NCBI GenBank assembly: GCA_021108295.1
Contig: JAIORF010000102.1
Span: forward strand, 295,963 to 359,962
Direction: 5' to 3'
Source: a bacterium
GTDB lineage: Bacteria; Patescibacteriota; Dojkabacteria; SC72
Length of the DNA stretch: 64,000 bases
Each line of letters starts with the position of its first letter. Position 1 is the first letter of the stretch. The notes beneath the pieces are model-generated. The model did not search any database, had not been told where the DNA came from, and saw nothing but the letters and a program-made list of their open reading frames with translations. The translations under genes were made by a program, and so were the position numbers. Below, piece by piece: positions 13,134 to 44,001 of the stretch.

Positions 13134-13224
13134 TTTACTAGCTCAAAAATTTTCAAAAACCCCACCTAGACCCTCTCTCTCGTTGATGATATAATGCTTT
13201 GCCCTAAACTTTTAAAAGATATTC

Positions 13225-15435
13225 ATGCAAGATTTTAAAAAATATCTCAACCCTTTCTACAAGGACATAAAACAAGTACAGGACTTCTCAGATGTAGTAT
13301 TCAAAGACGACCTTGAGAAAAAGGAATACCCATATCTAGAAAACATTACAAAAATCAATGTAAAAAGCATTGAATGGCTACTCCCAAGACTAGATCAACT
13401 AACACAAGAACTAGAAGACCAAATCCAAATTGTAGAACAAGAGACAGGAGACGACGCAGCAGCCGCAAAAAGTATATACAACCAAATACTCCAAGAAATA
13501 CAAACAACAGTAGACCGGATTAATAGGGATTTGATAAAAGTAGACTCCCCATACTTCGGTAAAATCATATTCACTCCAGAAGACACTCGAACTAAGAAAG
13601 ATATGGACATTTACATAGGGAAATTCGCAATTACAGATGAAAACTCTCGTGTACCCCTAGTTGTAGACTGGAGAGCCCCCATCGCAAACCTCTACTACCA
13701 AAACAGTGGACCAACCAAAAAGGTGCACTTCCAAGCCCCCGTAGGGAAAAGGGAGGGAGAACTAAAAGAAAAAAGACAATTTGAAATATCAAGAACAAGA
13801 ATACAAAACATTTACAACGCAAAAACAGGTAACACTGCAGCGGACGCATTCCTACTCAGTCAACTCGACAGTAGAATCGGTAAAAAACTAGCAGACATTG
13901 TATCTACCATACAAGCACAACAAAATGAGATAATAAGGGAAGAAATAAACAAACCTGTGATAATACAAGGAGTAGCAGGAAGTGGTAAAACCACAATACT
14001 CCTCCATAGACTCGCATACCTCTTCTTTAACTACAAAGATAAGATTCTACCTGAAAAATCCCTAATCGTAGCCCCCAACCGAATGTTTCTAGACTACATC
14101 TCAGATGTACTACCAAATCTAGGAGTACACGGTGTCAACACCCTCACATACCTCTTCTGGGGGAAGAAAGTACTTAATTGGGATAATAGATTTAGCGTGT
14201 CCACCGAAAAAATAAACATCGAACACAAAGAATACAAAGGCTCTACCAAATTCCTCAAATTCCTTGATACATACTTTAATGACTTTGAAGAAAGTCTACT
14301 AGAAAACATCCCCTACTCTAGATCTGACATAATCTCAAGACGATACTTCGAACTCAAAGAAAGCTTCCCACACATCTCTATGAAAGAGCGCCTCAACCTT
14401 GCAATTGACTACGCATTTGCACAAAACCAATTTAAAACCAAACAAACAGGCTCCTACGACAACAGTTTAAATATACAAAACGAAAAGAAGAAGAAGATCC
14501 TTGCATACATGAAGAGAAATCTTAACCCTTACCGACTATACAAAGAAATCTTCACCAAGAAACTCATACCAAAAGACATATGCAAATACACACTCACTGG
14601 ACTTAGATACAAAAATGCTCACAGATACTTCAGGACAGAAGACCTTGCTCCAATCGTATACCTACAACTCAAAATTCAAGGGACTAGAGACTTCGAGCAA
14701 GAATACATTGTAATAGATGAATGCCAGGACCTCTCACACATTGAAATAGCAACATTAGCAAGTATTGCAAAAAATGGGAACATCACCCTAGCAGGAGATC
14801 TAGCACAATCCATAATACCACCCTTCTACATTAGAGATTGGGACACCGTCAAAAACCTCATTAAAGACATGGGACATACCGACATCAGTTACCATGAACT
14901 TAATAGGTGCTACCGTACTACAATAGAGATTATAGAATTCGCAAACAAAATATTTAGAGACAGATTCCCAAAAAGCTACAAACTACCTGAAGCAGTACTA
15001 CGACACGGAGACCCAATTAGAGATATCTCACTTACCAAAGAGCTTAAAGATGTTGGGAAAGACGAACTTAAAACCTTCCTCTCTACTATCCAACAAGAAT
15101 TTGAGAATGGAGCGACTACATGCGCTCTAGTATGCAAAGATAAACAACATGCAAGGGCAGTATATGAAAAAATCAAACCTTTTGAGGATGTAATAGGGAG
15201 AGAGGTTACAGACTTCTCTGAAAATGATTACCACAGTGGCTTACTTGTACTCCCAATATCTCGAGCTAAAGGGTTAGAATTTGATACTGTAGTAATACTA
15301 GATTTAAACGAAGAGAAATACCCAGATACAGAATACAACACCAGACTCCTCTACGTAGCGATAACTAGAACACTACATAGATTAATAATTGTAAAGAATA
15401 AAAACATCAAAGACTCTCCACTTCTAGATACCTAA
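13225..15435 (+). CDS. UvrD-like SF1 helicase, HelD (helicase IV)-like
   Basis: N-terminal VVDWRAPIANLYY motif (HelD-type). Walker A GVAGSGKTT, DECQDLS, LLYVAITRTLHRL. Confidence 0.75.
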   Translation: MQDFKKYLNPFYKDIKQVQDFSDVVFKDDLEKKEYPYLENITKINVKSIEWLLPRLDQLTQELEDQIQIVEQETGDDAAAAKSIYNQILQEIQTTVDRINRDLIKVDSPYFGKIIFTPEDTRTKKDMDIYIGKFAITDENSRVPLVVDWRAPIANLYYQNSGPTKKVHFQAPVGKREGELKEKRQFEISRTRIQNIYNAKTGNTAADAFLLSQLDSRIGKKLADIVSTIQAQQNEIIREEINKPVIIQGVAGSGKTTILLHRLAYLFFNYKDKILPEKSLIVAPNRMFLDYISDVLPNLGVHGVNTLTYLFWGKKVLNWDNRFSVSTEKINIEHKEYKGSTKFLKFLDTYFNDFEESLLENIPYSRSDIISRRYFELKESFPHISMKERLNLAIDYAFAQNQFKTKQTGSYDNSLNIQNEKKKKILAYMKRNLNPYRLYKEIFTKKLIPKDICKYTLTGLRYKNAHRYFRTEDLAPIVYLQLKIQGTRDFEQEYIVIDECQDLSHIEIATLASIAKNGNITLAGDLAQSIIPPFYIRDWDTVKNLIKDMGHTDISYHELNRCYRTTIEIIEFANKIFRDRFPKSYKLPEAVLRHGDPIRDISLTKELKDVGKDELKTFLSTIQQEFENGATTCALVCKDKQHARAVYEKIKPFEDVIGREVTDFSENDYHSGLLVLPISRAKGLEFDTVVILDLNEEKYPDTEYNTRLLYVAITRTLHRLIIVKNKNIKDSPLLDT

Positions 15436-16085: not shown

Positions 16086-17513
16086 ATGGAAAACTTTAGC
16101 ATTGTACAAATTAGAAAGAAATTACTTAGTAAAGATTTAAGTGCAACAGAAGTTGTAAAGTATTACCTTAGTCAGATAGGGAAGAAGGATAAGGACTTAA
16201 ATGCATATATAACGGTATGCGAGGGAGATTCTCTTAAACAAGCAAAGGAGTTCGATGACAACTTTGAAGTAGAGAGTAAGAAGAAGATGAGTGGTATACC
16301 AATTGCAGTTAAAGATATATTTAGTACAAAGGGTGTACTTACTACTGCTGCATCTCATATCTTAGACGGCTACAAGCCAGTATATGATTCTACTGTAATA
16401 AAGAGATTGAAGGATGAGGGTATGATACTACTTGGTAAGACAAACCTAGACCAGTTCTGCCATGGTTCTTCTACAGTTACCTCTTACTACGGTCCTACTA
16501 GAAACCCACATGATTTAACTAAACTACCTGGTGGTAGTAGTGGTGGTAGTAGTGCTGCTACTGCAGCAGATATGTGTGCAGGAGCATTGGGTACTGAGAC
16601 TGCAGGCTCTATTAGACTCCCTGCTTCTTGGTGTGGTGTAGTTGGTCTTAAGCCTACATATGGGAGAGTTCCTAGATACGGTGTACTGGCAATGGGTTCT
16701 TCACTGGACAGTCCTGGTTCTCTTACTAAGAGCGTAGAGGATAGTGCGTATTTATTATCCATTATGGCTGGGTATGATCCTCATGATTTTACTTCGTACA
16801 AGGATCCTATCCCCAACTACTTTGAGAATCTGAGTATGGATAGTGTCAAGGGTATGAGGTTAGCTATACCCAAGGAGTATTTAGAATTAGAACTTACAGA
16901 TGGAGTAAGAGAGAACTTTGATAAGTCAGTAAAGATTTTAAAGTCTCTTGGAGCAGAGATAGAGGAGATTAGTATTATGGATCCTAAGTTCTCTATGGCA
17001 GTTTACACAATTACTTGTAGGAGTGAAGTATCCTCCAATCTTGCTAGGTACGATGGTACTAGATTTGGTCTAGAGGGGAGTAAGAATGAGAGCGTAAGAG
17101 AATATTTCGAGTCAACAAGGGGTGAGGGATTTGGTGAAGAGCCTAAGCGTAGGGTTATGACTGGTACTTTCTCCCTCTCTGCTGGTTATGCTGATGACTA
17201 TTTCAAGAAGTCAGAGCAGGTTAGGGAATTAATTAGGGAGGATTTCAGTAAGGTGTTTAAGAAGTTTGATGCAATTGTAGCTCCTTCTACTCCTTCTACA
17301 GCACTTAGTGATAAAGATGCGGACAATCCGTTGTTTGGAGAGATAGCAGATATATTAGCAGAGGGTAGTTCAGAGGCTGGTCTACCGGGTATTAGTATTC
17401 CTAATGGTTTGGAGGATGGTATGCCTACTGGTATACAGTTCATTAGTAATCACTTAGAAGAACAGAAGATATTGGATTTAGGGTATGGGTTGGAGAAAGG
17501 GTTGGAGGGTTAG
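16086..17513 (+). CDS. gatA: Asp-tRNA(Asn)/Glu-tRNA(Gln) amidotransferase subunit A
   Basis: Amidase signature GGSSGGSSAATAA...GTETAGSIRLPAS. Confidence 0.9.
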   Translation: MENFSIVQIRKKLLSKDLSATEVVKYYLSQIGKKDKDLNAYITVCEGDSLKQAKEFDDNFEVESKKKMSGIPIAVKDIFSTKGVLTTAASHILDGYKPVYDSTVIKRLKDEGMILLGKTNLDQFCHGSSTVTSYYGPTRNPHDLTKLPGGSSGGSSAATAADMCAGALGTETAGSIRLPASWCGVVGLKPTYGRVPRYGVLAMGSSLDSPGSLTKSVEDSAYLLSIMAGYDPHDFTSYKDPIPNYFENLSMDSVKGMRLAIPKEYLELELTDGVRENFDKSVKILKSLGAEIEEISIMDPKFSMAVYTITCRSEVSSNLARYDGTRFGLEGSKNESVREYFESTRGEGFGEEPKRRVMTGTFSLSAGYADDYFKKSEQVRELIREDFSKVFKKFDAIVAPSTPSTALSDKDADNPLFGEIADILAEGSSEAGLPGISIPNGLEDGMPTGIQFISNHLEEQKILDLGYGLEKGLEG

Positions 17514-33656: not shown

Positions 33657-34958
33657 TTAAGGCAGTAATGACTTGAACCAATCTGTAATTTTACCAAATA
33701 TTCCTCCCATATCAACTTTTTTACTTTCAGTATTATTAACATCCACTTCATCATCTAACGCATGTTTGATAAGGCCCTGTACACAAGAGTATGAAGGATC
33801 AGAGATTTCCTCTGTCATACCACTTAGACCAGAAGCATATCCAATTCTAGCAGGGACACCAAATACACCTTGTGTAAACTTTGTAATACCACTTAACAAA
33901 CTTGTACCTCCAGTAAGTACAATACCAGCAGGCATAGCAATCTCGTATCCAGCTCTTTCTACATTCTCTTTTGCCATATCAAATATTTCTTCACTTCTTG
34001 CTTCTACAATATCTTTTAGCATTTCTTTTGTCACTGTTTTTTCTGTTTCAATATTTATTAACGAAAGATCGAGTAAATCACCCTTAGGTTTGTCCTCTTT
34101 CTTCTCTTCAACAATCTTTCTTAGAAGAGCAGGTGTCTTATCCGTTTTCTTGTCGACTTCCATACGCTTATCAGAAAGTAATTCATCCATATTTACTTTA
34201 ATCTTTTCTGCGTCTTCTAATGACACTTGGAGACCAATTGCAATATCACTTGTAATATTGACCCCACCAAGTGGAATACAACCACTGTATATTATTGCTC
34301 CCTCTTGAAAAATAGCTATACTTGTTGTACCAGTACCAATATCGAGTAATGTAACACCCAACTCCTTCTCAGTATCAGTAAGTACTGCAGCAGCTGATGC
34401 CCATCCGGTAAATACCACATCATATACATTAAGACCTAGTTGCTCTACACACTTCTTAAGATTTTGCCAATATGAATTTGGTGCAGTAATTATATGTGTC
34501 TCTACTTCTAATCTTCCACCACTCATTCCAATTGGATATTTAATTCCACCTTGATTATCTACCATAAATTCTCTAGGGATGATGTGTATTGGATTAAGGT
34601 TTTCAGGCAAAGAGAGTGTACGAGCATTTTCAATAGCTCTGTATGTGTCATCAATGGTAATCTCTGAACCTGCCACTGCGACAACCCCCTTATTATTAAG
34701 ACTGGTAACTAAATCTCCATTAATGGATACATAAACATCTGAAACAGTAACCCCTGCCATTCTTTCTGCAGCATTTACACTCTCAGAAATTGCATTTGTA
34801 GCTTCATCAATATTTACAACAACACCTTTCTTAATTCCCTTACTTGGATGTGAACATACTCCAATTACGGTTGGTTTACTATCCTCTTCCACTGCTGATA
34901 TTACTGTAGTGATCTTCGATGTACCTACATCAATTGCTGTTATAATTTTTCGTGCCAT
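33657..34958 (-). CDS. ftsA: cell division protein FtsA
   Basis: Actin-like ATPase. IDVGTSKITTVI and LDIGTGTTSIAIF motifs. Confidence 0.9.
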   Translation of the reverse strand: MARKIITAIDVGTSKITTVISAVEEDSKPTVIGVCSHPSKGIKKGVVVNIDEATNAISESVNAAERMAGVTVSDVYVSINGDLVTSLNNKGVVAVAGSEITIDDTYRAIENARTLSLPENLNPIHIIPREFMVDNQGGIKYPIGMSGGRLEVETHIITAPNSYWQNLKKCVEQLGLNVYDVVFTGWASAAAVLTDTEKELGVTLLDIGTGTTSIAIFQEGAIIYSGCIPLGGVNITSDIAIGLQVSLEDAEKIKVNMDELLSDKRMEVDKKTDKTPALLRKIVEEKKEDKPKGDLLDLSLINIETEKTVTKEMLKDIVEARSEEIFDMAKENVERAGYEIAMPAGIVLTGGTSLLSGITKFTQGVFGVPARIGYASGLSGMTEEISDPSYSCVQGLIKHALDDEVDVNNTESKKVDMGGIFGKITDWFKSLLP

Positions 34959-35824: not shown

Positions 35825-35857
35825 ATATGTATATTAACATATTTTACTACCACTTCT

Positions 35858-37117
35858 TTACCCAGTAAGATTCTCCATTCTGTTTAACAAATATTCAGAT
35901 ATCGGAATCTCCATATTAGTATTGGGATCATCAATAGAAAAAGTCTCTAGTTTTTCTAAAACAGCACCTAATTCTCGTTCCACTTGTTCTCTATTCATCT
36001 CGAATGTCTCTGCAATTTCAGACGGATGATGGGGATTATTAACAAAAGCAATTCCAAAACGTAAACAAACTAATCTGTATTCTCTCTCGGACAGGTTCTC
36101 ACATAAAAGATATGGTAATTCACATAAGTCTGTTAGACTTGTTGCTAATTCCTTGTCAGATATCTCACTTATATTCAACTTAAGGATACTCCCAGATTCT
36201 ATCGACCACAAAACGGAGCTACTTATCTGTTGCGCTTGCTGTTTTGACATATCAAATATCCTCGAGATTCCCCGAAAAGTCATAACATCTCCAAGAATTC
36301 CAGATCTAAGCATATAGATTCCAAAAGTACGCAGATTTCTTACTTTGCAATACCTTAAAATCTTTTTAAGAGTTTCTGAAACTTCCATCCTCTCGTCAAG
36401 CATACTTAAACCATCATTTTCTTTGGAAAGATAATTATGCGCCTTATCTCTATCTCTAAAATCGACAGATTCATCATTTAACGAAAAGGGTTCGTTCATT
36501 GCCCTCACTGCTGCAACCCTATTTTCTATCTTTACTTTGCTATATCCAAGTTCTATGCAACGACTTCGTACTCCCTCTTCTGTAAGTAATTCATCAAGTT
36601 TAAACACATCTTCGGACATATTCACAGGAACTTGAATCAAATTCCCGTGTTCTTGTAAGTGGCTCGATATTGCTTCTTTTATCCACCATATAGCATAGGT
36701 AGAAAACCTTTTATTCCTACTAGCCTTCTCTAAATCAAATTTCCTTAAAGCAATGACTATTCCCCATCGACCTTCCTGAAGAAGTTCTTCTCTTTCTGCA
36801 TGTTTGCTATAACCTCTTTGTTTTTTATACAAACTTAGAACCAATCCTCCATTTCTACAAACAAACTCCTTTTCAATCTCATAAATCTCCTCTTGTAACG
36901 AATTATCTTCCTTATGAACTTCAAACTCTTTTCTTAATATTGCATATCGTTCTAATTGAGCTCTCTCTTCCTCTGGTGTAAACAGAGGATACTCAGCCGT
37001 CAATCTTTTCATTTCGGCAAAAAGCCAACTATCTGAGGTATCAAGATATACCTCCTTCTCTGGAATTCCTTCTGCTCTTACAATTTCTTTATCTACACTC
37101 TTTATCTTATGTGTCAT
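35858..37117 (-). CDS. RNA polymerase sigma-70 family factor (paralog 1)
   Basis: Region 2 LLQEGRWGIVIALRKFDLEKASRNKRFSTYAIWWIKEAISSHL. Region 4 LSEREYRLVCLRFGIA...SEIAETFEMNREQVERELGAVLEKL. Confidence 0.75.
   Translation of the reverse strand: MTHKIKSVDKEIVRAEGIPEKEVYLDTSDSWLFAEMKRLTAEYPLFTPEEERAQLERYAILRKEFEVHKEDNSLQEEIYEIEKEFVCRNGGLVLSLYKKQRGYSKHAEREELLQEGRWGIVIALRKFDLEKASRNKRFSTYAIWWIKEAISSHLQEHGNLIQVPVNMSEDVFKLDELLTEEGVRSRCIELGYSKVKIENRVAAVRAMNEPFSLNDESVDFRDRDKAHNYLSKENDGLSMLDERMEVSETLKKILRYCKVRNLRTFGIYMLRSGILGDVMTFRGISRIFDMSKQQAQQISSSVLWSIESGSILKLNISEISDKELATSLTDLCELPYLLCENLSEREYRLVCLRFGIAFVNNPHHPSEIAETFEMNREQVERELGAVLEKLETFSIDDPNTNMEIPISEYLLNRMENLTG
36047..36175. repeat. 129-nt segment 100% identical to 37355-37483 (inside sigma paralog 1)
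   Basis: Direct read-through comparison. The surrounding gene sequence is only ~55-60% identical at the protein level. Confidence 0.85.
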
Positions 37118-37166
37118 GACTTAAATAGATCTAGTGGGGAGTAAAATATAATTATATTACAGTTCC

Positions 37167-38426
37167 TTACTTCGTAAAATTTCTTAAATTAGACAAATAC
37201 TCAGATACTGTAATCTCCGTATTAGTATTGGGATCATCTATGAGAAGAACTTCCAATTTCTCCATAATGGTGTCCAATTCTTGCTCTACTTGTTCTGTAT
37301 TTGTTTTTAATGTTTCTGCAATTTCAGACAATGGACAAGGTTTATTATCAATAAGAGCAATTCCAAAACGTAAACAAACTAATCTGTATTCTCTCTCGGA
37401 CAGGTTCTCACATAAAAGATATGGTAATTCACATAAGTCTGTTAGACTTGTTGCTAATTCCTTGTCAGATATCTCACTTATATCCAATTTACCAATCCTT
37501 CCATATACTACATTTCTTCGTACTCCATCAGTTATTTGCCTTACTCTCTCTCGTGATATGTTAAATATCTTTCCAACCTCTTCTAGTGTCATACCACATC
37601 CAAGAACTCCAGCTTTAAGCATAAACATTCCGAAATCCCGTATGTTTTTCTCTTTGTAATACTTAAGAATTTTCTTGGAGACTTCTGTAACCAACAGTCT
37701 ATTTTCTACTCGTCTACGAGTTGCCTCCCAGTCATTATTTGAAAGCTTCTGATATCCATTCTTACAATTCTCAGGTTCTTCATCTAATGACTCCTGCGAT
37801 GCTGCTCTAACTGCTGCAATTAACGCTTTCGTTTTTTGTTCTTTATACCCAAGCTCTTCACAACGGGCTCGAACAGCCTTTTCCGTTAATGGTAATGGAC
37901 AATTAAGTTTTGACAAAGCCCAATGAGTACTTGCAGAAACTCGCATTACACTTCTATTTTCTCTCTGATATCGCTCCATGAACGATTTAAGCCACCAACA
38001 TGCATAAGTAGAGAATTTTTTATTTCCTCCTATCTTGGCTAAATCAAACTTTCTTAAAGCCCAAACTATTGCCCAGCGACCTTCTTGGATAAGGTCATCT
38101 GCATCTGCAAATTTAGCAGGGTCCTTTATTTTACTATATTGTTTTAGAATTAATCCTCCATTTCTACAAACAAACTCGTTTTCAATCTCATTAATTTGAT
38201 CCTCAATTTTAGACACATTCCCATTATTACTATCCTTTAACTCTTTTCTCAATTTTGCATATCGTTCTAATTGAGCTCGCTCAACCTCTGGTGCAAATAC
38301 TGGGTACTCAGCTATCCATCTTTTTGTCTCGATAAAAATCCTACTCCTTGAGTTATCAAGATAATCCTCAGTTCTTTCCATTGTTATTGTAGATCCTTCA
38401 ACCTCACTCCCTGCATTGTTTAGCAT
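37167..38426 (-). CDS. RNA polymerase sigma-70 family factor (paralog 2)
   Basis: Region 2 LIQEGRWAIVWALRKFDLAKIGGNKKFSTYACWWLKSFMERY. Region 4 LSEREYRLVCLRFGIAL...SEIAETLKTNTEQVEQELDTIMEKL. Confidence 0.75.
   Translation of the reverse strand: MLNNAGSEVEGSTITMERTEDYLDNSRSRIFIETKRWIAEYPVFAPEVERAQLERYAKLRKELKDSNNGNVSKIEDQINEIENEFVCRNGGLILKQYSKIKDPAKFADADDLIQEGRWAIVWALRKFDLAKIGGNKKFSTYACWWLKSFMERYQRENRSVMRVSASTHWALSKLNCPLPLTEKAVRARCEELGYKEQKTKALIAAVRAASQESLDEEPENCKNGYQKLSNNDWEATRRRVENRLLVTEVSKKILKYYKEKNIRDFGMFMLKAGVLGCGMTLEEVGKIFNISRERVRQITDGVRRNVVYGRIGKLDISEISDKELATSLTDLCELPYLLCENLSEREYRLVCLRFGIALIDNKPCPLSEIAETLKTNTEQVEQELDTIMEKLEVLLIDDPNTNTEITVSEYLSNLRNFTK
37355..37483. repeat. 129-nt segment 100% identical to 36047-36175 (inside sigma paralog 2)
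   Basis: As above. Encodes ...ISEISDKELATSLTDLCELPYLLCENLSEREYRLVCLRFGIA. Confidence 0.85.
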
Positions 38427-38458
38427 GTTCTAATTAGTCTAGTGGGGAGTAAATAAAT

Positions 38459-38535
38459 TGGAGCGAGAGACGGGATTCGAACCCGCGACCTACACATTGG
38501 CAATGTGTCGTTCTAGCCAACTGAACTACTCTCGC
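38459..38535 (-). tRNA. tRNA-Gly (anticodon GCC)
   Basis: Same scaffold as the other tRNA-Gly. Anticodon loop TTGCCAA. CCA encoded. Confidence 0.85.
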
Positions 38536-38539
38536 CTAC

Positions 38540-38615
38540 TGGTGCCTAGACCCAGGCTTGAACTGGGGACCCCATGTTTTTCAGACATGTGCTCTACCAA
38601 CTGAGCTATCTAGGC
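38540..38615 (-). tRNA. tRNA-Phe (anticodon GAA)
   Basis: GCCTAGA...CATGT-CTGAAAA-ACATG...TCTAGGC-A-CCA. Confidence 0.85.
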
Positions 38616-38625
38616 AACAGATGTA

Positions 38626-39717
38626 TTATATACTGTTTCTAACCAAATCTTCAACCTCTTTTCTAAATCTCTCTTTACTAAATCTCTCTACACTCTTTAC
38701 CATACTCCCAATATCCCAGCTCATACTCACCAACCTCTCTAAACCCTCTCTAAAACTCTCTACTGTATTCTCAGTGTAAAAGCCCCCATTAACTCCCTCT
38801 ACTACACTCTCCATATACCCACCCTTCTTGAGAGCCAATACAGGAGTACCACAACTAATACTCTCTACAGGAAATATCCCAAAATCCTCAATTCCAGAGA
38901 CAAGAAAACCACTAGCCTGAGACATTATTTTATACTTCTCACTATCACTAATCCTACCCACAAATTCAATATTGCTACTACCCCTAGCCAACCTCTTTAA
39001 ACGCTTACTACCTCTACCCTCACCAATTACCTTTAAATTAAACTTTAATTCTTTAGCACACTCTATGAGGAACTCTCCCCCCTTGTTCTCTGCAAAAGGA
39101 GCACCCGCTACAAAGTAATTCCCCCTATCCTGATATTCAATCAATTTACCACTATACAAATTAACAGGAGGATATATTACCCTCTCTACATCTCTGCCCC
39201 AATATCTTTTACACCTCTGTGCAACAAACTTAGAATTAGAAACAAGAATATCTGGTCTAGAAGAAGACATAACGTCCCAAATACGAAGGTAATTAAGAAA
39301 TGGAGCCTTCAAAAGCCCATACTTACTGTAAATATCTTTTAAATCCCATAAGTACCTCAAAGGAGTATGAATATATGAAATATGTAAACTCTCCTGAGAA
39401 GTAATACACCCCTTGGCTATACCATGACTAGACGATATTACAAGATCGTAATTAGACAAATCGAAGGTCTCTACAGCTACTGGCCAAAGAGGTAGATAAA
39501 AAGTATATAACTTTTGAATAAAGGGAAATCTATTTAAAAACGAAAACCTAACCTCCCTATCTCTTAAATACCTCTCTACAAACTTCTTACTCCCATACAA
39601 AGAAAATATATCAGCCTCAGGAAAAAGATTAGCCAATTCTAAATTAACCACATTTGCACCACCCATTGAAAATAGATTCTCGACTACCAATGCAATTTTA
39701 AAACCCTTACTTTTCAT
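38626..39717 (-). CDS. glycosyltransferase family 4 (GT-B, EX7E motif)
   Basis: GIEDFGIFPVESISCGTPVLALKKGGYMESVVEGVNGGF. Confidence 0.75.
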   Translation of the reverse strand: MKSKGFKIALVVENLFSMGGANVVNLELANLFPEADIFSLYGSKKFVERYLRDREVRFSFLNRFPFIQKLYTFYLPLWPVAVETFDLSNYDLVISSSHGIAKGCITSQESLHISYIHTPLRYLWDLKDIYSKYGLLKAPFLNYLRIWDVMSSSRPDILVSNSKFVAQRCKRYWGRDVERVIYPPVNLYSGKLIEYQDRGNYFVAGAPFAENKGGEFLIECAKELKFNLKVIGEGRGSKRLKRLARGSSNIEFVGRISDSEKYKIMSQASGFLVSGIEDFGIFPVESISCGTPVLALKKGGYMESVVEGVNGGFYTENTVESFREGLERLVSMSWDIGSMVKSVERFSKERFRKEVEDLVRNSI

Positions 39718-40447: not shown

Positions 40448-41245
40448 ATGGATACAATAAAAATATTAACACTTTCGATTATACAGGGTATAACAGAATT
40501 GTTACCAGTATCAAGCAGTGGACACGTACTTGTAATAGGTAGACTCCTCAATCTTGATATATCTAATCACACAGCATTCCTTTCAACCTTGCACCTAGGT
40601 ACAACACTCGCTATTATAGTTTTCTTTAGAGAAGAACTCTTCGAGAACTTCTTTACTAAATCTAAACTCACGTTCTTTCTTAAACTACTCTTAGCCTCTC
40701 TACCTGTAGCAATGATTGGCTTTCTCTTCGAAGACTACATTGCCCAGTTCTATTATGGGAACCTCACCATCGCGATATTACTCATTGTTGTTGGTACGCT
40801 TTTTATAATCGCAGAAAACATTAACTTTAAAACAGTTAATCTTAAACCAAAAGAAGTACCACTTAGAAAAATGATACTGATTGGTATTGGCCAAACACTG
40901 GCACTAATACCTGGAACTTCTAGATCTGGAATTACAACTCTTAGTGGCATGATGTGCGGATTAAGTAAATATAGTGCCCTAAAATTCGGATTTATTCTAG
41001 GGATACCCATACTACTTGGAAGTAGTCTCTACGAGATTATCAAATCATACATAGAGACACCAGACAACTCTATAACCACAACCTCCCTCTCTATTGTGAA
41101 AATGCTTCCTGCAATAGCGATGACCTTTCTAGTCGGATATTTTGCACTATATGTTATAGAGAGATTTCAAAAGAAAAAATGGTTAACAATCTTTGGAATT
41201 TATAGATTAACAGTTGGATTATTAATATTAATATTTACTATATAA
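40448..41245 (+). CDS. uppP: undecaprenyl-diphosphatase
   Basis: GITELLPVSSSGH and PGTSRSGITTLSGM motifs. Confidence 0.85.
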   Translation: MDTIKILTLSIIQGITELLPVSSSGHVLVIGRLLNLDISNHTAFLSTLHLGTTLAIIVFFREELFENFFTKSKLTFFLKLLLASLPVAMIGFLFEDYIAQFYYGNLTIAILLIVVGTLFIIAENINFKTVNLKPKEVPLRKMILIGIGQTLALIPGTSRSGITTLSGMMCGLSKYSALKFGFILGIPILLGSSLYEIIKSYIETPDNSITTTSLSIVKMLPAIAMTFLVGYFALYVIERFQKKKWLTIFGIYRLTVGLLILIFTI

Positions 41246-42884
41246 CCCTATTAAGATCCATCCCTGTCATAATATCTGGAAGAGTAGCACCCATACTACT
41301 TAATGCTGTAGGAGCTATATCCGCAAGAATACCTGTAGGTTTAGCACTATCCCCAGTACCTATCTTCACAACATCCCTACCATCCTTGCCCTCTACCTGA
41401 TCCATACTTTCAATTATTGTAAATGGTACTGGATTATTCGTATGGGCCCTATGAATCTCTTTGGTAGTACGATCTATCATCGTCTCACAATTCCCGTGAT
41501 CAGCAGTAATCATCACAGAACCTCCCACACTTAATGTTGCCCTAGCTATATCTGCTGTACAACTATCTGTTATCTCATTGGCTTTAATCGTTGCTCTAAA
41601 ATCCCCCGTATGACCCAACATATCAGGATTTGCGAAATTCACCAACACAAAACCATAGTTATACTTCGCATTATTCTTAATCCTATTAACAGTCTCATCC
41701 CTAATTATCAAAGCACTCATTTCGGGAGTCTCGGCATAGGTATTTACACGAGGAGAAGGAATATTGAAAAAATCTTCACCCACATGTTCCTTCTCTACAC
41801 CACCATTAAAGAAATATGTCACATGCATATGCTTTTCTGTCTCAGACACATGTAATTGATTAATTCCATTATCTGCAAGATATTGAGCCAAAGAGAGTTT
41901 AACTTTGTTTGGTGGGAATATTACCTTAGCAGGAAGTCCCTCTTCATATCCTGTCATAGTTACAAAACAGATATTCTCAGGAAAAGACCTTCTAGGAAAA
42001 TGCGTCCAATCTTTCAAAACAAATGACTTAGTTATCTGCCTAGCCCTATCCTCTCTGAAATTCCAAAAAAGTATAGCATCCCCAGTCTCTACCTTACCTA
42101 CTGGTTTTCCCCTTCCATCTACAGCTACTGTAGGTAAAAGAAACTGATCAGTGACACCCTTCTTGTAAGAATCTTGCACAGCCTTTATCGGATCAACAAA
42201 AGTACTACCTGAAAGACCTACCATAGCGTCATATGCTAGCTTTGTCCTCTCCCAACGACTATCCCTATCCATCCCATAAAACCTCCCCTGCAAAGAAGCA
42301 ATATGACCAACACCAAGATCTTCCATCTTCTTTTTAAGCTTAGTCAAATACCAATACCCGTCAGTTGCAGGAGTATCCCGCCCATCAAGGATCACGTGAA
42401 CATATGGATCTACACCACGAGTCTTACAAAGTTCAAGAAGTGAGAACAAATGCTTAATATGGCCATGTACACCAGCAGCACTCAATATCCCCACTAGATG
42501 CAATCGAGAATTATTCTCCTTCATATGCTTAAACATATCTTTTACAGCGTCATTATTATCCAACTCATGATGAGCAAGAGCCTCATTAATTCTAGGCAAT
42601 GACTGATACACAACCTGACCCGCACCCATATTCAAGTGCCCAACCTCACTATTGCCTACAACCTCACTAGGTAGACCTACATGTGTACCGGATGCATGAA
42701 TTAGAGTAGATTTCCCATTGGTCCAAGCTGTATCCAAAAACGGAGTCTTAGCTGTAAGCACAGCATTTCCCATTTTATCTGGATGAACTCCAAAACCATC
42801 AAGGATGATTAATGTAACCAGCTTCTCAGCCCCCACATTACCTCCACTCTCTTTTATCTTTTGTTTATTAAAAAGTCCAAACAT
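41238..42884 (-). CDS. gpmI: 2,3-bisphosphoglycerate-independent phosphoglycerate mutase (copy 2)
   Basis: LIILDGFGV, GNSEVGHLNMGAGQVV, DGRDTP, ADHGNCE motifs. Start trimmed to MFGLFNKQK (42882-42884). The longer Cys-rich N-terminal ORF overlaps prfB and is not credible. Confidence 0.8.
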   Translation of the reverse strand: MFGLFNKQKIKESGGNVGAEKLVTLIILDGFGVHPDKMGNAVLTAKTPFLDTAWTNGKSTLIHASGTHVGLPSEVVGNSEVGHLNMGAGQVVYQSLPRINEALAHHELDNNDAVKDMFKHMKENNSRLHLVGILSAAGVHGHIKHLFSLLELCKTRGVDPYVHVILDGRDTPATDGYWYLTKLKKKMEDLGVGHIASLQGRFYGMDRDSRWERTKLAYDAMVGLSGSTFVDPIKAVQDSYKKGVTDQFLLPTVAVDGRGKPVGKVETGDAILFWNFREDRARQITKSFVLKDWTHFPRRSFPENICFVTMTGYEEGLPAKVIFPPNKVKLSLAQYLADNGINQLHVSETEKHMHVTYFFNGGVEKEHVGEDFFNIPSPRVNTYAETPEMSALIIRDETVNRIKNNAKYNYGFVLVNFANPDMLGHTGDFRATIKANEITDSCTADIARATLSVGGSVMITADHGNCETMIDRTTKEIHRAHTNNPVPFTIIESMDQVEGKDGRDVVKIGTGDSAKPTGILADIAPTALSSMGATLPDIMTGMDLNRVI

Positions 42885-42924
42885 ACTATGATATACATAT
42901 TTACATAGTATATAATAGATTGCA

Positions 42925-44001
42925 ATGAATACCCTCACAAAAAAAGATTTAGAAAACACAAAAAGACTTCTTGAATCAATCATTAACTCACTGAAACTCA
43001 CTGAGAAAGAACAAAAACTTAAAGAATTAGAAAAGGACTCCTTGAAGACCGACTTCTGGTCAGACAATGTACAAGCACAAAACACCATGAAGCAAATAGA
43101 AAGCATACGCAAAGAAAAAGACACATCAACTACACTCACCAACGACATTGATTCACTAATTGAATTGTATGAGATAGAAGAGAATAAAGAACAACTAACA
43201 GAAGAATACAACAATATCCATAGTAGAATAAAAGACTTTGAGAAACTTAAATTCCTCTCAGGCAAATATGACAACAACAATATTCTACTAAGTATTCATG
43301 CAGGACAAGGAGGAACTGAATCCAATGACTGGGCTTCTATGCTTCTTCGAATGTACCAAATGTATTGTGATAAAAAAGGTTGGAAATATGAGATAGAAAA
43401 TGCAGTAAGTGGAACTGAAACTGGAATATCTAGTATTACAATGAGAATTACTGGAGAATATGTATATGGACTACTCAAGGAAGAACACGGTACACACAGA
43501 CTTGTAAGAATTTCTCCCTTTAATGCACAGGGCTTGAGACAAACCACATTCGCTGGAGTTGAGATAATACCAATACTTGAAAAGATAGACACCGACATAG
43601 AAATACCTGAAAACGATATAGAGTTTAAAGCTGTAAGAGCTAGTGGACCAGGAGGACAGAAAGTAAACAAAACCTCCTCTGCTGTACAAATTACACATAC
43701 ACCTACAGGAATTACAGTTCACTCCTCTACACAAAGAAACCAACTACAAAACAGAGAGAATGCAATGAACCTACTCAAATCAAAACTTGCAAAGATTCTA
43801 GAAGAAGAAAGAATAGAAGAAATAGATCAAATTAAAGGCAATTACAAACAAGCAAGTTGGGGTAATCAGATACGAAACTATGTACTACACCCATATAAAT
43901 TGGTGAAAGATTTAAGAACAAACATTGAAAGTAGTAATCCCCAATTTATACTAGATGGCAATCTTGATGAATTTGTTGAAGCGCAACTAAGAATACAGTA
44001 G
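42925..44001 (+). CDS. prfB: peptide chain release factor 2 (uninterrupted ORF, no programmed frameshift)
   Basis: SPF tripeptide motif (RISPFNAQGLRQTTFAG) and GGQ (SGPGGQKVNKTSS). Confidence 0.85.
   Translation: MNTLTKKDLENTKRLLESIINSLKLTEKEQKLKELEKDSLKTDFWSDNVQAQNTMKQIESIRKEKDTSTTLTNDIDSLIELYEIEENKEQLTEEYNNIHSRIKDFEKLKFLSGKYDNNNILLSIHAGQGGTESNDWASMLLRMYQMYCDKKGWKYEIENAVSGTETGISSITMRITGEYVYGLLKEEHGTHRLVRISPFNAQGLRQTTFAGVEIIPILEKIDTDIEIPENDIEFKAVRASGPGGQKVNKTSSAVQITHTPTGITVHSSTQRNQLQNRENAMNLLKSKLAKILEEERIEEIDQIKGNYKQASWGNQIRNYVLHPYKLVKDLRTNIESSNPQFILDGNLDEFVEAQLRIQ

Follow-up and report, generated by a model that had tools for sequence, protein, structure and literature searches.

Sigma factors set the transcription programme of the cell, and very little is known of how transcription is controlled in bacteria of the candidate phyla radiation (CPR). 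The subject of this report is a pair of sigma-70 family genes in one such bacterium, a member of the Dojkabacteria, which lie head to tail on the same strand within a stretch of 64,000 nucleotides of contig JAIORF010000102.1 (positions 295,963 to 359,962 of the forward strand; assembly GCA_021108295.1), referred to throughout as the window. The two genes, 'up' and 'dn', have tRNA-Phe(GAA) and tRNA-Gly(GCC) upstream of them and ftsQ, ftsA, ftsZ and ftsW downstream. The closest described proteins are the group 1 and group 2 sigma-70 factors (RpoD/SigA, RpoS, HrdA-D), with which the products of these genes share the collinear regions 2, 3 and 4, the FSTYAxWW motif and, in 'up', a canonical region 4.2; SigA, HrdB and RpoS chains are their best matches in both sequence and fold. 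The window proteins differ from these factors in that they carry an extra acidic sigma4-like domain, lack region 1.1 (Pfam detects no region 1.2 or region 3 in them either), score far below the equivalog cut-offs, and belong to a fast-evolving family, confined to one clade, whose copy number and length are variable.

Three further kinds of system provide points of comparison. Gene conversion between bacterial duplicates is well known, the classical case being tufA and tufB of Salmonella and E. coli, in which non-reciprocal exchange leaves a stretch of the paralogs identical, synonymous sites included. The window genes resemble them in possessing such a stretch; the tuf copies are, however, dispersed and near-identical throughout, whereas the window copies are tandem and saturated at synonymous sites, with a single tract of 128 nt. 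Alternative sigma genes that regulate themselves through a promoter or operator of their own are a general pattern, exemplified by many extracytoplasmic function (ECF) and stress sigma genes. Here too a gene-specific conserved element stands immediately upstream of the gene, although a search of the 64 kb gave no regulon sites and the element fits no known -35/-10 geometry. Finally, ECF41, ECF42, ECF44 and other ECF factors carry fused C-terminal regulatory extensions (PMC3426412, PMC8999054, PMC7826278), and by analogy the window proteins may be compared with them as sigma factors bearing an added C-terminal domain that is thought to take the part of a separate anti-sigma factor in modulating their activity. 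ECF factors, however, belong to group 4 and consist of sigma2 and sigma4 only, with extensions that are SnoaL-like, tetratricopeptide-repeat or Cys-rich, whereas the body of the window proteins is group-1/2-like, aligning to RpoD/SigA through regions 2, 3 and 4 (r2-r3-r4), and the extension itself has the sigma4 fold and recurs up to several times in a longer homolog (P0241). Through the shared sigma-70 core there is also a likeness to MzaA, the sigma-70 component of the MZA anti-phage system, which gave the best PADLOC match and a strong NCBIfam match. The scores (70 and 73 bits with NCBIfam against a cut-off of 800, and 49-69 bits with PADLOC) reflect the generic core only, and no MZA partner genes occur near the sigma pair, the neighbours being tRNAs and ftsQAZ. 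The window proteins do not belong to MzaA.

The locus is read here, with a probability of about 0.7, as tandem paralogs of a clade-restricted, fast-evolving sigma-70 factor occupying a variable slot between tRNA-Gly and ftsQ, the products of an old duplication that carry a recent conversion tract and a gene-specific upstream block. Three features give it its interest: a clean natural instance of short-tract conversion in tandem paralogs that are old and diverged, a sigma-70 layout to which an acidic sigma4-like domain has been added, and a conserved upstream element that is not of Shine-Dalgarno (SD) type in a genome nearly devoid of SD sites. The unusual part of the locus is the extra C-terminal domain, the processes being otherwise known ones. 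Should the extension prove to be a self-regulating mimic of sigma4, it would represent a new mode of sigma control; otherwise the locus is one of ordinary duplication, divergence and conversion.

A sigma-70 body with an added acidic domain

The initial annotation had recognised two 419-aa sigma-70 genes in tandem, and this description holds: both open reading frames (ORFs) are intact, of equal length, and match NCBIfam RpoD/SigA-type models across r2-r4. The two proteins are 52% identical (66% at the DNA level). Region 2 passes the Pfam cut-off of 24 bits for Sigma70_r2 (PF04542) in both (32.2 bits in 'dn' and 25.0 bits in 'up'), and the FSTYAxWW melting motif aligns with that of RpoD/SigA in a PDB sequence alignment. 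Region 4 (Sigma70_r4, PF04545) is present in 'up', which scores 52.5 bits at full length and 35.2 bits when its internal sigma4 domain is taken in isolation, and is degenerate in 'dn', where the isolated internal domain gives no match to the Pfam model and the score of 16.5 bits falls on the C-terminal copy. The generic superfamily model TIGR02937, which spans all sigma-70 proteins, was passed by both proteins (57.5 and 79.3 bits against 42.9). An AlphaFold2 (AF2) model of 'up' (mean predicted local distance difference test score, pLDDT, 77.8) had SigA, HrdB and RpoS chains as its best Foldseek matches in the PDB, with a probability of 1.0 and E ~1e-7. The model has three helices between sigma2 and sigma4, and the layout of the protein is that of sigma2, a sigma3-like bundle, a canonical sigma4 with the SRERVRQI helix (about residues 255-305) and then a C-terminal sigma4-like domain.

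The match to ordinary sigma models stops at about residue 305 and some 115 further residues follow. A profile built from this extension matches the sigma4 domain of ordinary sigma factors, and its AF2 model (pLDDT 78) finds its best match in SigA region 4 structures, with a root-mean-square deviation of 1.7-2.6 Å over ~60 residues. Each protein is a group-1/2-like sigma body to which an acidic sigma4-like domain has been added. The net charge of the extension lies between -6 and -12 across all family members (-12 in both 'up' and 'dn'), as against +5/+6 for the internal sigma4. Because the extension is so strongly acidic, and because its 'recognition helix' is without basic residues, DNA binding is unlikely, and the idea that the extra domain binds TAGA direct repeats was set aside on the same grounds. 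More probably, to judge from the charge and the modelled fold, the extension would serve as a mimic of sigma4, acting within the molecule or binding a partner, and would in this way tune the activity of the factor. In P0241 (720 aa) additional degenerate modules are present, and family members differ in size (419, 552 and 720 aa) and in their number of modules. Neither full-text literature searches nor curated libraries yielded a sigma-70 factor with a second region 4 or an added sigma4-like domain, and the literature search returned no paper on Dojkabacteria sigma factors. The extension profile also retrieved, from a representative library, a 938-aa protein (P0243) made up of ten tandem Sigma70_r4 repeats (Pfam 249 bits) with no sigma2.

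The roles of the promoter-reading positions of regions 2.4 and 4.2 are established by sigma-70 genetics and structures. Over the part of region 2.4 that contains the -12-reading positions of E. coli sigma-70, 'up' has WWLKSFME, 'dn' has WWIKEAIS, and the sigma gene of the sister species (here 'rel') has WWIRQSMK, so that the two -12-reading positions are occupied by S and E, by E and S, and by Q and K, respectively. The recognition helix of region 4.2 is the canonical SRERVRQI in 'up', SGERVNQI in 'rel' and a degenerate SKQQAQQI in 'dn'. Given this divergence at residues that read the -10 and the -35 elements, 'up' and 'dn' probably direct RNA polymerase to different promoters.

Distribution of the family and history of the two copies

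Among ~15 billion proteins searched, the family consists of six proteins in five 90% clusters (P0001, P0003, P0002/P0362, P0241 and P0242). Two are those of the window, P0002/P0362 come from the sister species, and one Logan run supplied P0241 (720 aa) and P0242 (552 aa), homologs of only 37% protein identity. Every member is located between tRNA-Gly(GCC) and ftsQ in a small clade of Dojkabacteria. The order glycosyltransferase (GT), tRNA-Phe, tRNA-Gly, slot, ftsQ-ftsA-ftsZ-ftsW-L21 is conserved in Dojkabacteria and the content of the slot is variable: it is empty in contig L091, holds a hydrolase in L086 and L087, three unrelated genes in L089, and sigma genes in the clade of the window. The sigma family is absent from the syntenic slot of L086-L091. 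Homologs of the neighbouring GT number in the hundreds, with several under the name Candidatus Dojkabacteria, and none of the abundant Dojkabacteria sequences in which the GT neighbour is 61-77% identical has an ortholog of the sigma genes. Close relatives were also lacking in viral contigs and in JGI metagenomes, which were scanned with a protein pattern and with a DNA pattern combining tRNA-Gly, C-box and TAGA. A phage or defence origin is unsupported, as viral contigs gave only generic r2-r4 matches of <=30% identity and the matches in PHROGs and PADLOC were to generic sigma factors.

Whether orthologous loci hold one sigma gene or two was a check proposed in the initial annotation, and it is answered by three contigs. 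In sister-species contig L171, whose sequence matches the merged L084 and L001 at 100% identity, the 3' end of tRNA-Gly is followed by one 418-aa sigma gene and then by ftsQ. Contigs L169 and L170, which have the appearance of one single-copy locus in two strain variants, each start in tRNA-Gly, contain one sigma gene and end at the start of ftsQ. The copy number is one in the sister species and in two further lineages, and two in the window lineage only. An earlier idea that the sister species also has two copies, which arose from contigs that break within the gene, is refuted by the single contig L171. Three sister-species assemblies (at the start of L001) do break at the same nucleotide in the sigma gene, P0002 being a partial protein of 359 aa; a strain mixture at a hypervariable sigma gene is a possible cause of these breaks. 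In L169 a 69-aa ORF (1811-2020) follows the 552-aa sigma gene of P0242 and is homologous to a C-terminal module of the 720-aa P0241; it is apparently a variant produced by truncation or frameshift in a co-occurring strain.

The two copies in the window are old. Ahead of the identical tract the proportion of synonymous sites that differ (pS) is 0.59 between 'up' and 'dn', corresponding to a synonymous divergence (dS) of ~1.16, and pS is 0.59 after the tract as well, so that synonymous sites are near saturation. The comparison with the sister species gives a different picture. Eight flanking genes (GT, ftsQ, ftsA, ftsZ, ftsW, L21, UPF0020 and SpoU) have pS values of 0.45-0.67 between window and sister species, as against 0.24 for 'up' and 'rel' before the tract and 0.09 over their first 50 codons. 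Since the first ~330 codons of 'up' are nearer to 'rel' at synonymous sites than are the flanking housekeeping genes, recombination between lineages at this locus is suggested, and most of 'up', or of the sister gene, would have been exchanged between the lineages after their split. The informative sites are arranged as a mosaic. Over nucleotides 1-990 'up' groups with 'rel'; within the tract 'up' groups with 'dn'; over nucleotides 1081-1170 the sites mostly unite 'up' and 'rel' once more; over 1171-1260 the grouping is unclear; and over about the last 60 nucleotides 'dn' groups with 'rel'. The ratio of non-synonymous to synonymous change (omega) is 0.41 for 'up' and 'rel' over the whole gene and 0.02-0.16 in the eight flanking genes. 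Uneven divergence was also seen in ftsA (33657-34958), which when compared with L171 has a pS of 0.26-0.28 at codons 301-375 and of 0.65-0.73 at codons 151-300, a pattern that hints at recombination between these lineages beyond the sigma gene.

Within this background of old divergence 'up' and 'dn' share one stretch of 128 nt, offset by 1309, that is the same in both. It had been reported as a run of 129 nt encoding the region 3.2/4.1 segment. The run is one nucleotide shorter, the two ranges given for it are out of register by one base and so do not match each other, and the residues encoded (315-357) lie beyond the canonical sigma4, covering the linker helix and the first, 4.1-like, helix of the extra C-terminal domain. 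The identity breaks off abruptly at both edges. When codon columns were shuffled (5000 shuffles) the longest identical run had a mean of 19.6 nt and a maximum of 41 nt. The tract fully contains 42 codons with ~27 synonymous sites, at which no differences were found where ~16 would be expected at a pS of 0.59 (P = 3.7e-11). In the sister species the same stretch is 75-82% identical in nucleotides to the window, with a pS of 0.48 and differences at 13 of the ~27 synonymous sites, and is conserved no more than the remaining gene; 'up' and 'dn' agree with each other, and differ from the sister species, at all 21 informative sites. The identical stretch is accordingly bounded by diverged flanks, and the paralogs group together inside it yet not outside. 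Because synonymous change is zero in the tract, saturated in its flanks and ordinary in the same stretch of the sister species, the tract is most likely the result of recent non-reciprocal homologous recombination, that is gene conversion, between the two copies.

Alternative histories and the question of a primary factor

The initial annotation had offered recent gene conversion or strong constraint at the nucleotide level as explanations of the identical patch, and the first of these stands. Selection on the nucleotides themselves, as by an embedded small RNA, an internal promoter or a binding site, would account for zero synonymous change, and the tract is indeed the most conserved part of the extension, the pattern ISDKEL..TD.CE.PY..L..EEY.L.C.RFGIA being kept down to the 37%-identical homologs, which points to some constraint on the protein. 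The departure of the sister species at nearly half of the synonymous sites and at every informative site shows that the tract is not conserved as nucleotides, and thus favours recent conversion; there is, besides, no third copy in the window, no Rfam match in the tract, and the edges are abrupt. Nucleotide selection is largely refuted and now very improbable. The other danger, foreseen in the initial annotation as an assembly collapse, is that the patch or the whole tandem arrangement is an artefact of collapse or chimerism, the sequence being metagenome-assembled and the sister-species assemblies breaking inside the sigma gene as described. Two independent assemblies reproduce the arrangement: the ENA SPAdes contig L002, from another sample, contains the two genes and is 99.99% identical over 8 kb, and the Logan contig L003, from a different run, is 100% identical over 1410 nt that lead from 'up' through its tract into the start of 'dn'. 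As the ORFs are also intact and short-read assemblers do not homogenise 128 nt between genes otherwise 66% identical, an artefact is very unlikely. In a more elaborate history the tandem duplication would be fairly recent and the patch what is left of it unaltered, imported alleles of related lineages having later overwritten the flanks of one copy. The apparent exchange between lineages (pS of 0.09-0.3 for 'up' and 'rel' against 0.45-0.67 in flanking genes), the single copy in three other lineages and a pS between 'up' and 'dn' close to the species-level value would all suit such a history. It requires at least two separate import tracts that by chance spared a 128-nt island, however, while 3' of the patch all three sequences are equally distant (pS 0.58-0.61) and the 3' flanks of the two copies show no significant homology. 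A remnant island is less parsimonious than conversion, and improbable.

The relation of these genes to the housekeeping factor of the organism has to be weighed in a similar manner, the initial annotation having called them primary-like. A duplicated primary sigma factor would agree with the RpoD/SigA-type best matches in the databases and the PDB, with collinear r2-r3-r4, and with the retention in 'up' of the canonical -35-reading helix. CPR genomes are small and have few sigma factors, and the window contains no second sigma locus; a sigma profile search of all six-frame ORFs found no other sigma-like ORF in it, in agreement with the initial annotation. Several lines of evidence nevertheless make 'primary-like' a doubtful description. 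The RpoD C-terminal equivalog model TIGR02393 (RpoD_Cterm) gives 85 and 76 bits against a cut-off of 354, and all NCBIfam models of RpoD/SigA are likewise far below their cut-offs. A primary factor would be expected to be conserved, slow to change and present in all relatives, whereas this family is missing from the same slot in other Dojkabacteria, has no orthologs among the Dojkabacteria sequences whose GT neighbour is 61-77% identical, and evolves at an omega far above that of its neighbours. Its length and its number of modules also vary, and the key residues that read the -12 and -35 positions differ among 'up', 'dn' and 'rel'. That these are the primary factors is therefore unlikely, and on the strength of clade restriction and absence from the slot, fast evolution and mosaic history the family is read as an accessory factor.

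Certain considerations weigh against the overall reading of the locus and should be set beside it. The accessory status draws on phyletic pattern and evolutionary rate, and the search for other sigma factors covered 64 kb only. Whether the duplication came before or after speciation is only weakly dated, as there are just four outgroup sequences and synonymous sites are saturated. The attempt to define the duplication unit by comparing the 3' flank of 'up' with the sigma-ftsQ spacer gave a non-significant result (168 and 541 of 2000 shuffles equalled it). The proposed function of the extension derives from charge and modelled fold, and promoter and terminator calls are consensus matches only. 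With regard to the upstream block described below, the T at -7 is absent from TAGAyN in two of the five copies, there is no -35 element or TG extension, and the spacing from C-box to TAGA varies by 2 nt. A bolder proposal than the accessory paralogs favoured here is that the family represents an undescribed sigma-70 class, in which one to several C-terminal acidic sigma4-mimic modules would serve as built-in regulators, for example by competing with the real sigma4 for the beta-flap or a partner protein, within a recombination-prone, diversifying cassette that has its own conserved control element and is fixed between tRNA-Gly and ftsQAZ in one Dojkabacteria clade; the rapid turnover would then be the outcome of an arms race, or of adaptation to a host, in an episymbiotic CPR bacterium. 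As a whole this proposal is speculative and, on present grounds, unlikely.

The upstream block and the surrounding genes

A motif of 16 nt, TTTACTCCCCACTAGA, is found without mismatch ahead of both genes on the minus strand (Table 1). The initial annotation had noted this motif, and it proves to be real and gene-specific, recurring ahead of the sister gene and of the 37%-identical homologs, with small corrections of position: it lies 12 nt from the ATG in 'dn' and 11 nt in 'up' rather than at an equal distance from both, and starts 5 nt past the CCA of tRNA-Gly rather than directly abutting it. When up to three mismatches were allowed, the window gave a single additional match (17069-17084, two mismatches), inside a gene on the opposite strand; a total of three matches was reached in 6 of 100 shuffles. 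The motif is the best-conserved part of a block of ~35 nt that stands ahead of every known family member and consists of a T-rich run, CTsCCCC and TAGAyN(T/A)ATT(A/T)RA, the last ~11 nt from the ATG. The interval between TAGA and the ATG is 12 nt in 'dn' and 11 nt in the other four copies. Upstream of the sister gene the sequence is TTCACTCCCCACTAGA, one change from the motif, with different flanks, and upstream of P0241 and P0242 a degenerate form occurs, CTGCCCC(T/C)TATTAGAT.TATTAGAAG-ATG. After the tRNA-Gly of Dojkabacteria that have no sigma gene the block is absent. On this pattern of occurrence it is taken to be a cis-regulatory site specific to the sigma genes.

Other identities for the motif were considered and rejected. 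An ancestral tRNA-Gly trailer or an att-type repeat is not supported, as the motif is absent in L086, L088, L089 and L091 (L086 shares TTTACTCC) and no direct repeats surround the pair. Nor is it a ubiquitous, ribosome-binding-site-like element, the possibility that the initial annotation had named as fatal to its proposal: there are two exact matches in the 64 kb, the motif is not SD-like, and SD-like tetramers precede only 2 of 55 genes. That count refers to GGAG, GAGG or AGGA at -20 to -5 from the gene starts of the window, where in addition 10 of the 55 genes have a hexamer matching TATAAT at five or more of six positions, 5-8 nt ahead of the start codon, a sign that many mRNAs of this genome may be leaderless or nearly so. 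Regulon searches for CCCC-N(1-6)-TAGA or TAGA-N-TTAGA before other genes of the window returned one weak case and nothing usable. The weak case is CCCCACCTAGA at 13160-13170 (+), 55 nt ahead of the gene at 13225-15435 and just upstream of a TGatgaTATAAT box; no other intergenic sequence of the window has a likeness to the motif core.

As to how the block might act, the reading tentatively preferred, at somewhat under even odds, is that of an operator or promoter-proximal element by which initiation would be fixed or controlled a few bases ahead of the ATG, in a genome nearly free of SD sites. In its DNA-level version TAGAyN would be a -10-like element with the transcript starting 3-4 nt before the ATG, and the C-box would be a spacer or an operator. 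Alternatively the block may act on RNA, as the start of a short SD-less leader that carries a signal for translation, stability or tRNA processing, the leader being derived from the TATAAT promoter in the case of 'dn' and from 3' processing of tRNA-Phe/tRNA-Gly in the case of 'up'. This is a possible but less favoured account. In its favour, a canonical promoter-like site ends 5 nt ahead of the motif of 'dn'; four of the five copies lie 5-17 nt behind tRNA-Gly, an interval that contains no good promoter; TAGA stands at a fixed distance from the ATG; and base pairing between the motif and GGGAGUGA at codons 6-9, which would enclose the AUG, is possible in both 'up' and the sister gene. Against it, the hairpin is absent in 'dn' (z = +1.2) and cannot be encoded in P0241 or P0242, only 1 of 13 predicted pairs shows a compensatory change, the C-rich box resembles an anti-SD sequence and not an SD sequence, and there is no match to an Rfam family. 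The folding of the shared leader, which the initial annotation had put forward as a check, was carried out with RNAalifold and single folds, and a hairpin as a common feature of the motif was rejected, being formed only in 'up' and the sister gene and with non-significant scores (z of -0.26, +1.16 and -1.6 over the three sequences). The promoter-like site upstream of tRNA-Phe listed in Table 1 could give rise to a tRNA-sigma co-transcript.

Table 1. Coordinates of features at the sigma locus, counted from the first base of the window
Feature	Position	Strand	Description
Sigma-70 family gene 'up'	37167-38426	-	419 aa; ORF call, Pfam, NCBIfam, AF2 model, PDB sequence alignment
Sigma-70 family gene 'dn'	35858-37117	-	419 aa; ORF call, Pfam, NCBIfam
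Extra C-terminal sigma4-like acidic domain, 'up'	37170-37490	-	Residues 313-419; Pfam Sigma70_r4 23.0 bits, E = 5.8e-5
Extra C-terminal sigma4-like acidic domain, 'dn'	35861-36181	-	Residues 313-419; Pfam Sigma70_r4 16.5 bits
Identical tract in 'up'	37356-37483	-	128 nt, residues 315-357; no synonymous differences
Identical tract in 'dn'	36047-36174	-	128 nt, same sequence; offset 1309
Upstream block of 'up'	38427-38458	-	From tRNA-Gly CCA to ATG; exact motif 38438-38453, TAGA-N11-ATG
Upstream block of 'dn'	37118-37150	-	Exact motif 37130-37145, TAGA-N12-ATG
Promoter-like TTTACG-16-TATAAT	37151-37178	-	Consensus scan 10/12; overlaps 3' end of 'up', ends 5 nt ahead of 'dn' motif
Promoter-like TTGAAG-18-TATAAT	38625-38654	-	Just upstream of tRNA-Phe; pattern match only
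tRNA-Gly(GCC)	38459-38535	-	ARAGORN and Rfam; directly upstream of 'up'
tRNA-Phe(GAA)	38540-38615	-	ARAGORN and Rfam; tRNA-Phe/tRNA-Gly pair kept across Dojkabacteria
dn-ftsQ intergenic region with TGTTAATAT	35825-35857	-	Extended -10-like; 6 nt ahead of ftsQ ATG

Downstream of the pair, the sequence ahead of ftsQ reads ATATG(T/C)TAATATA.A.A.ATG and includes TG-n-TAATAT. It was compared between the dn-ftsQ region of the window, L091 (1498-1528) and the 3' ends of L169 and L170, and is kept in relatives with and without a sigma gene. Since this extended -10-like element persists regardless of the sigma gene, the division cluster probably has a promoter of its own. An AT-rich inverted repeat of 21 nt (35831-35851/37137-37157, 81% complementary) flanks 'dn' and overlaps the start of the motif; it is not conserved in the sister species and is probably due to chance. 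Further upstream on the same strand, the ORF at 41238-43280 (-) was called from a TTG start at 680 aa, its phosphoglycerate mutase homologs in L085 and L086 being 548 aa long, and its true start is probably an internal ATG.

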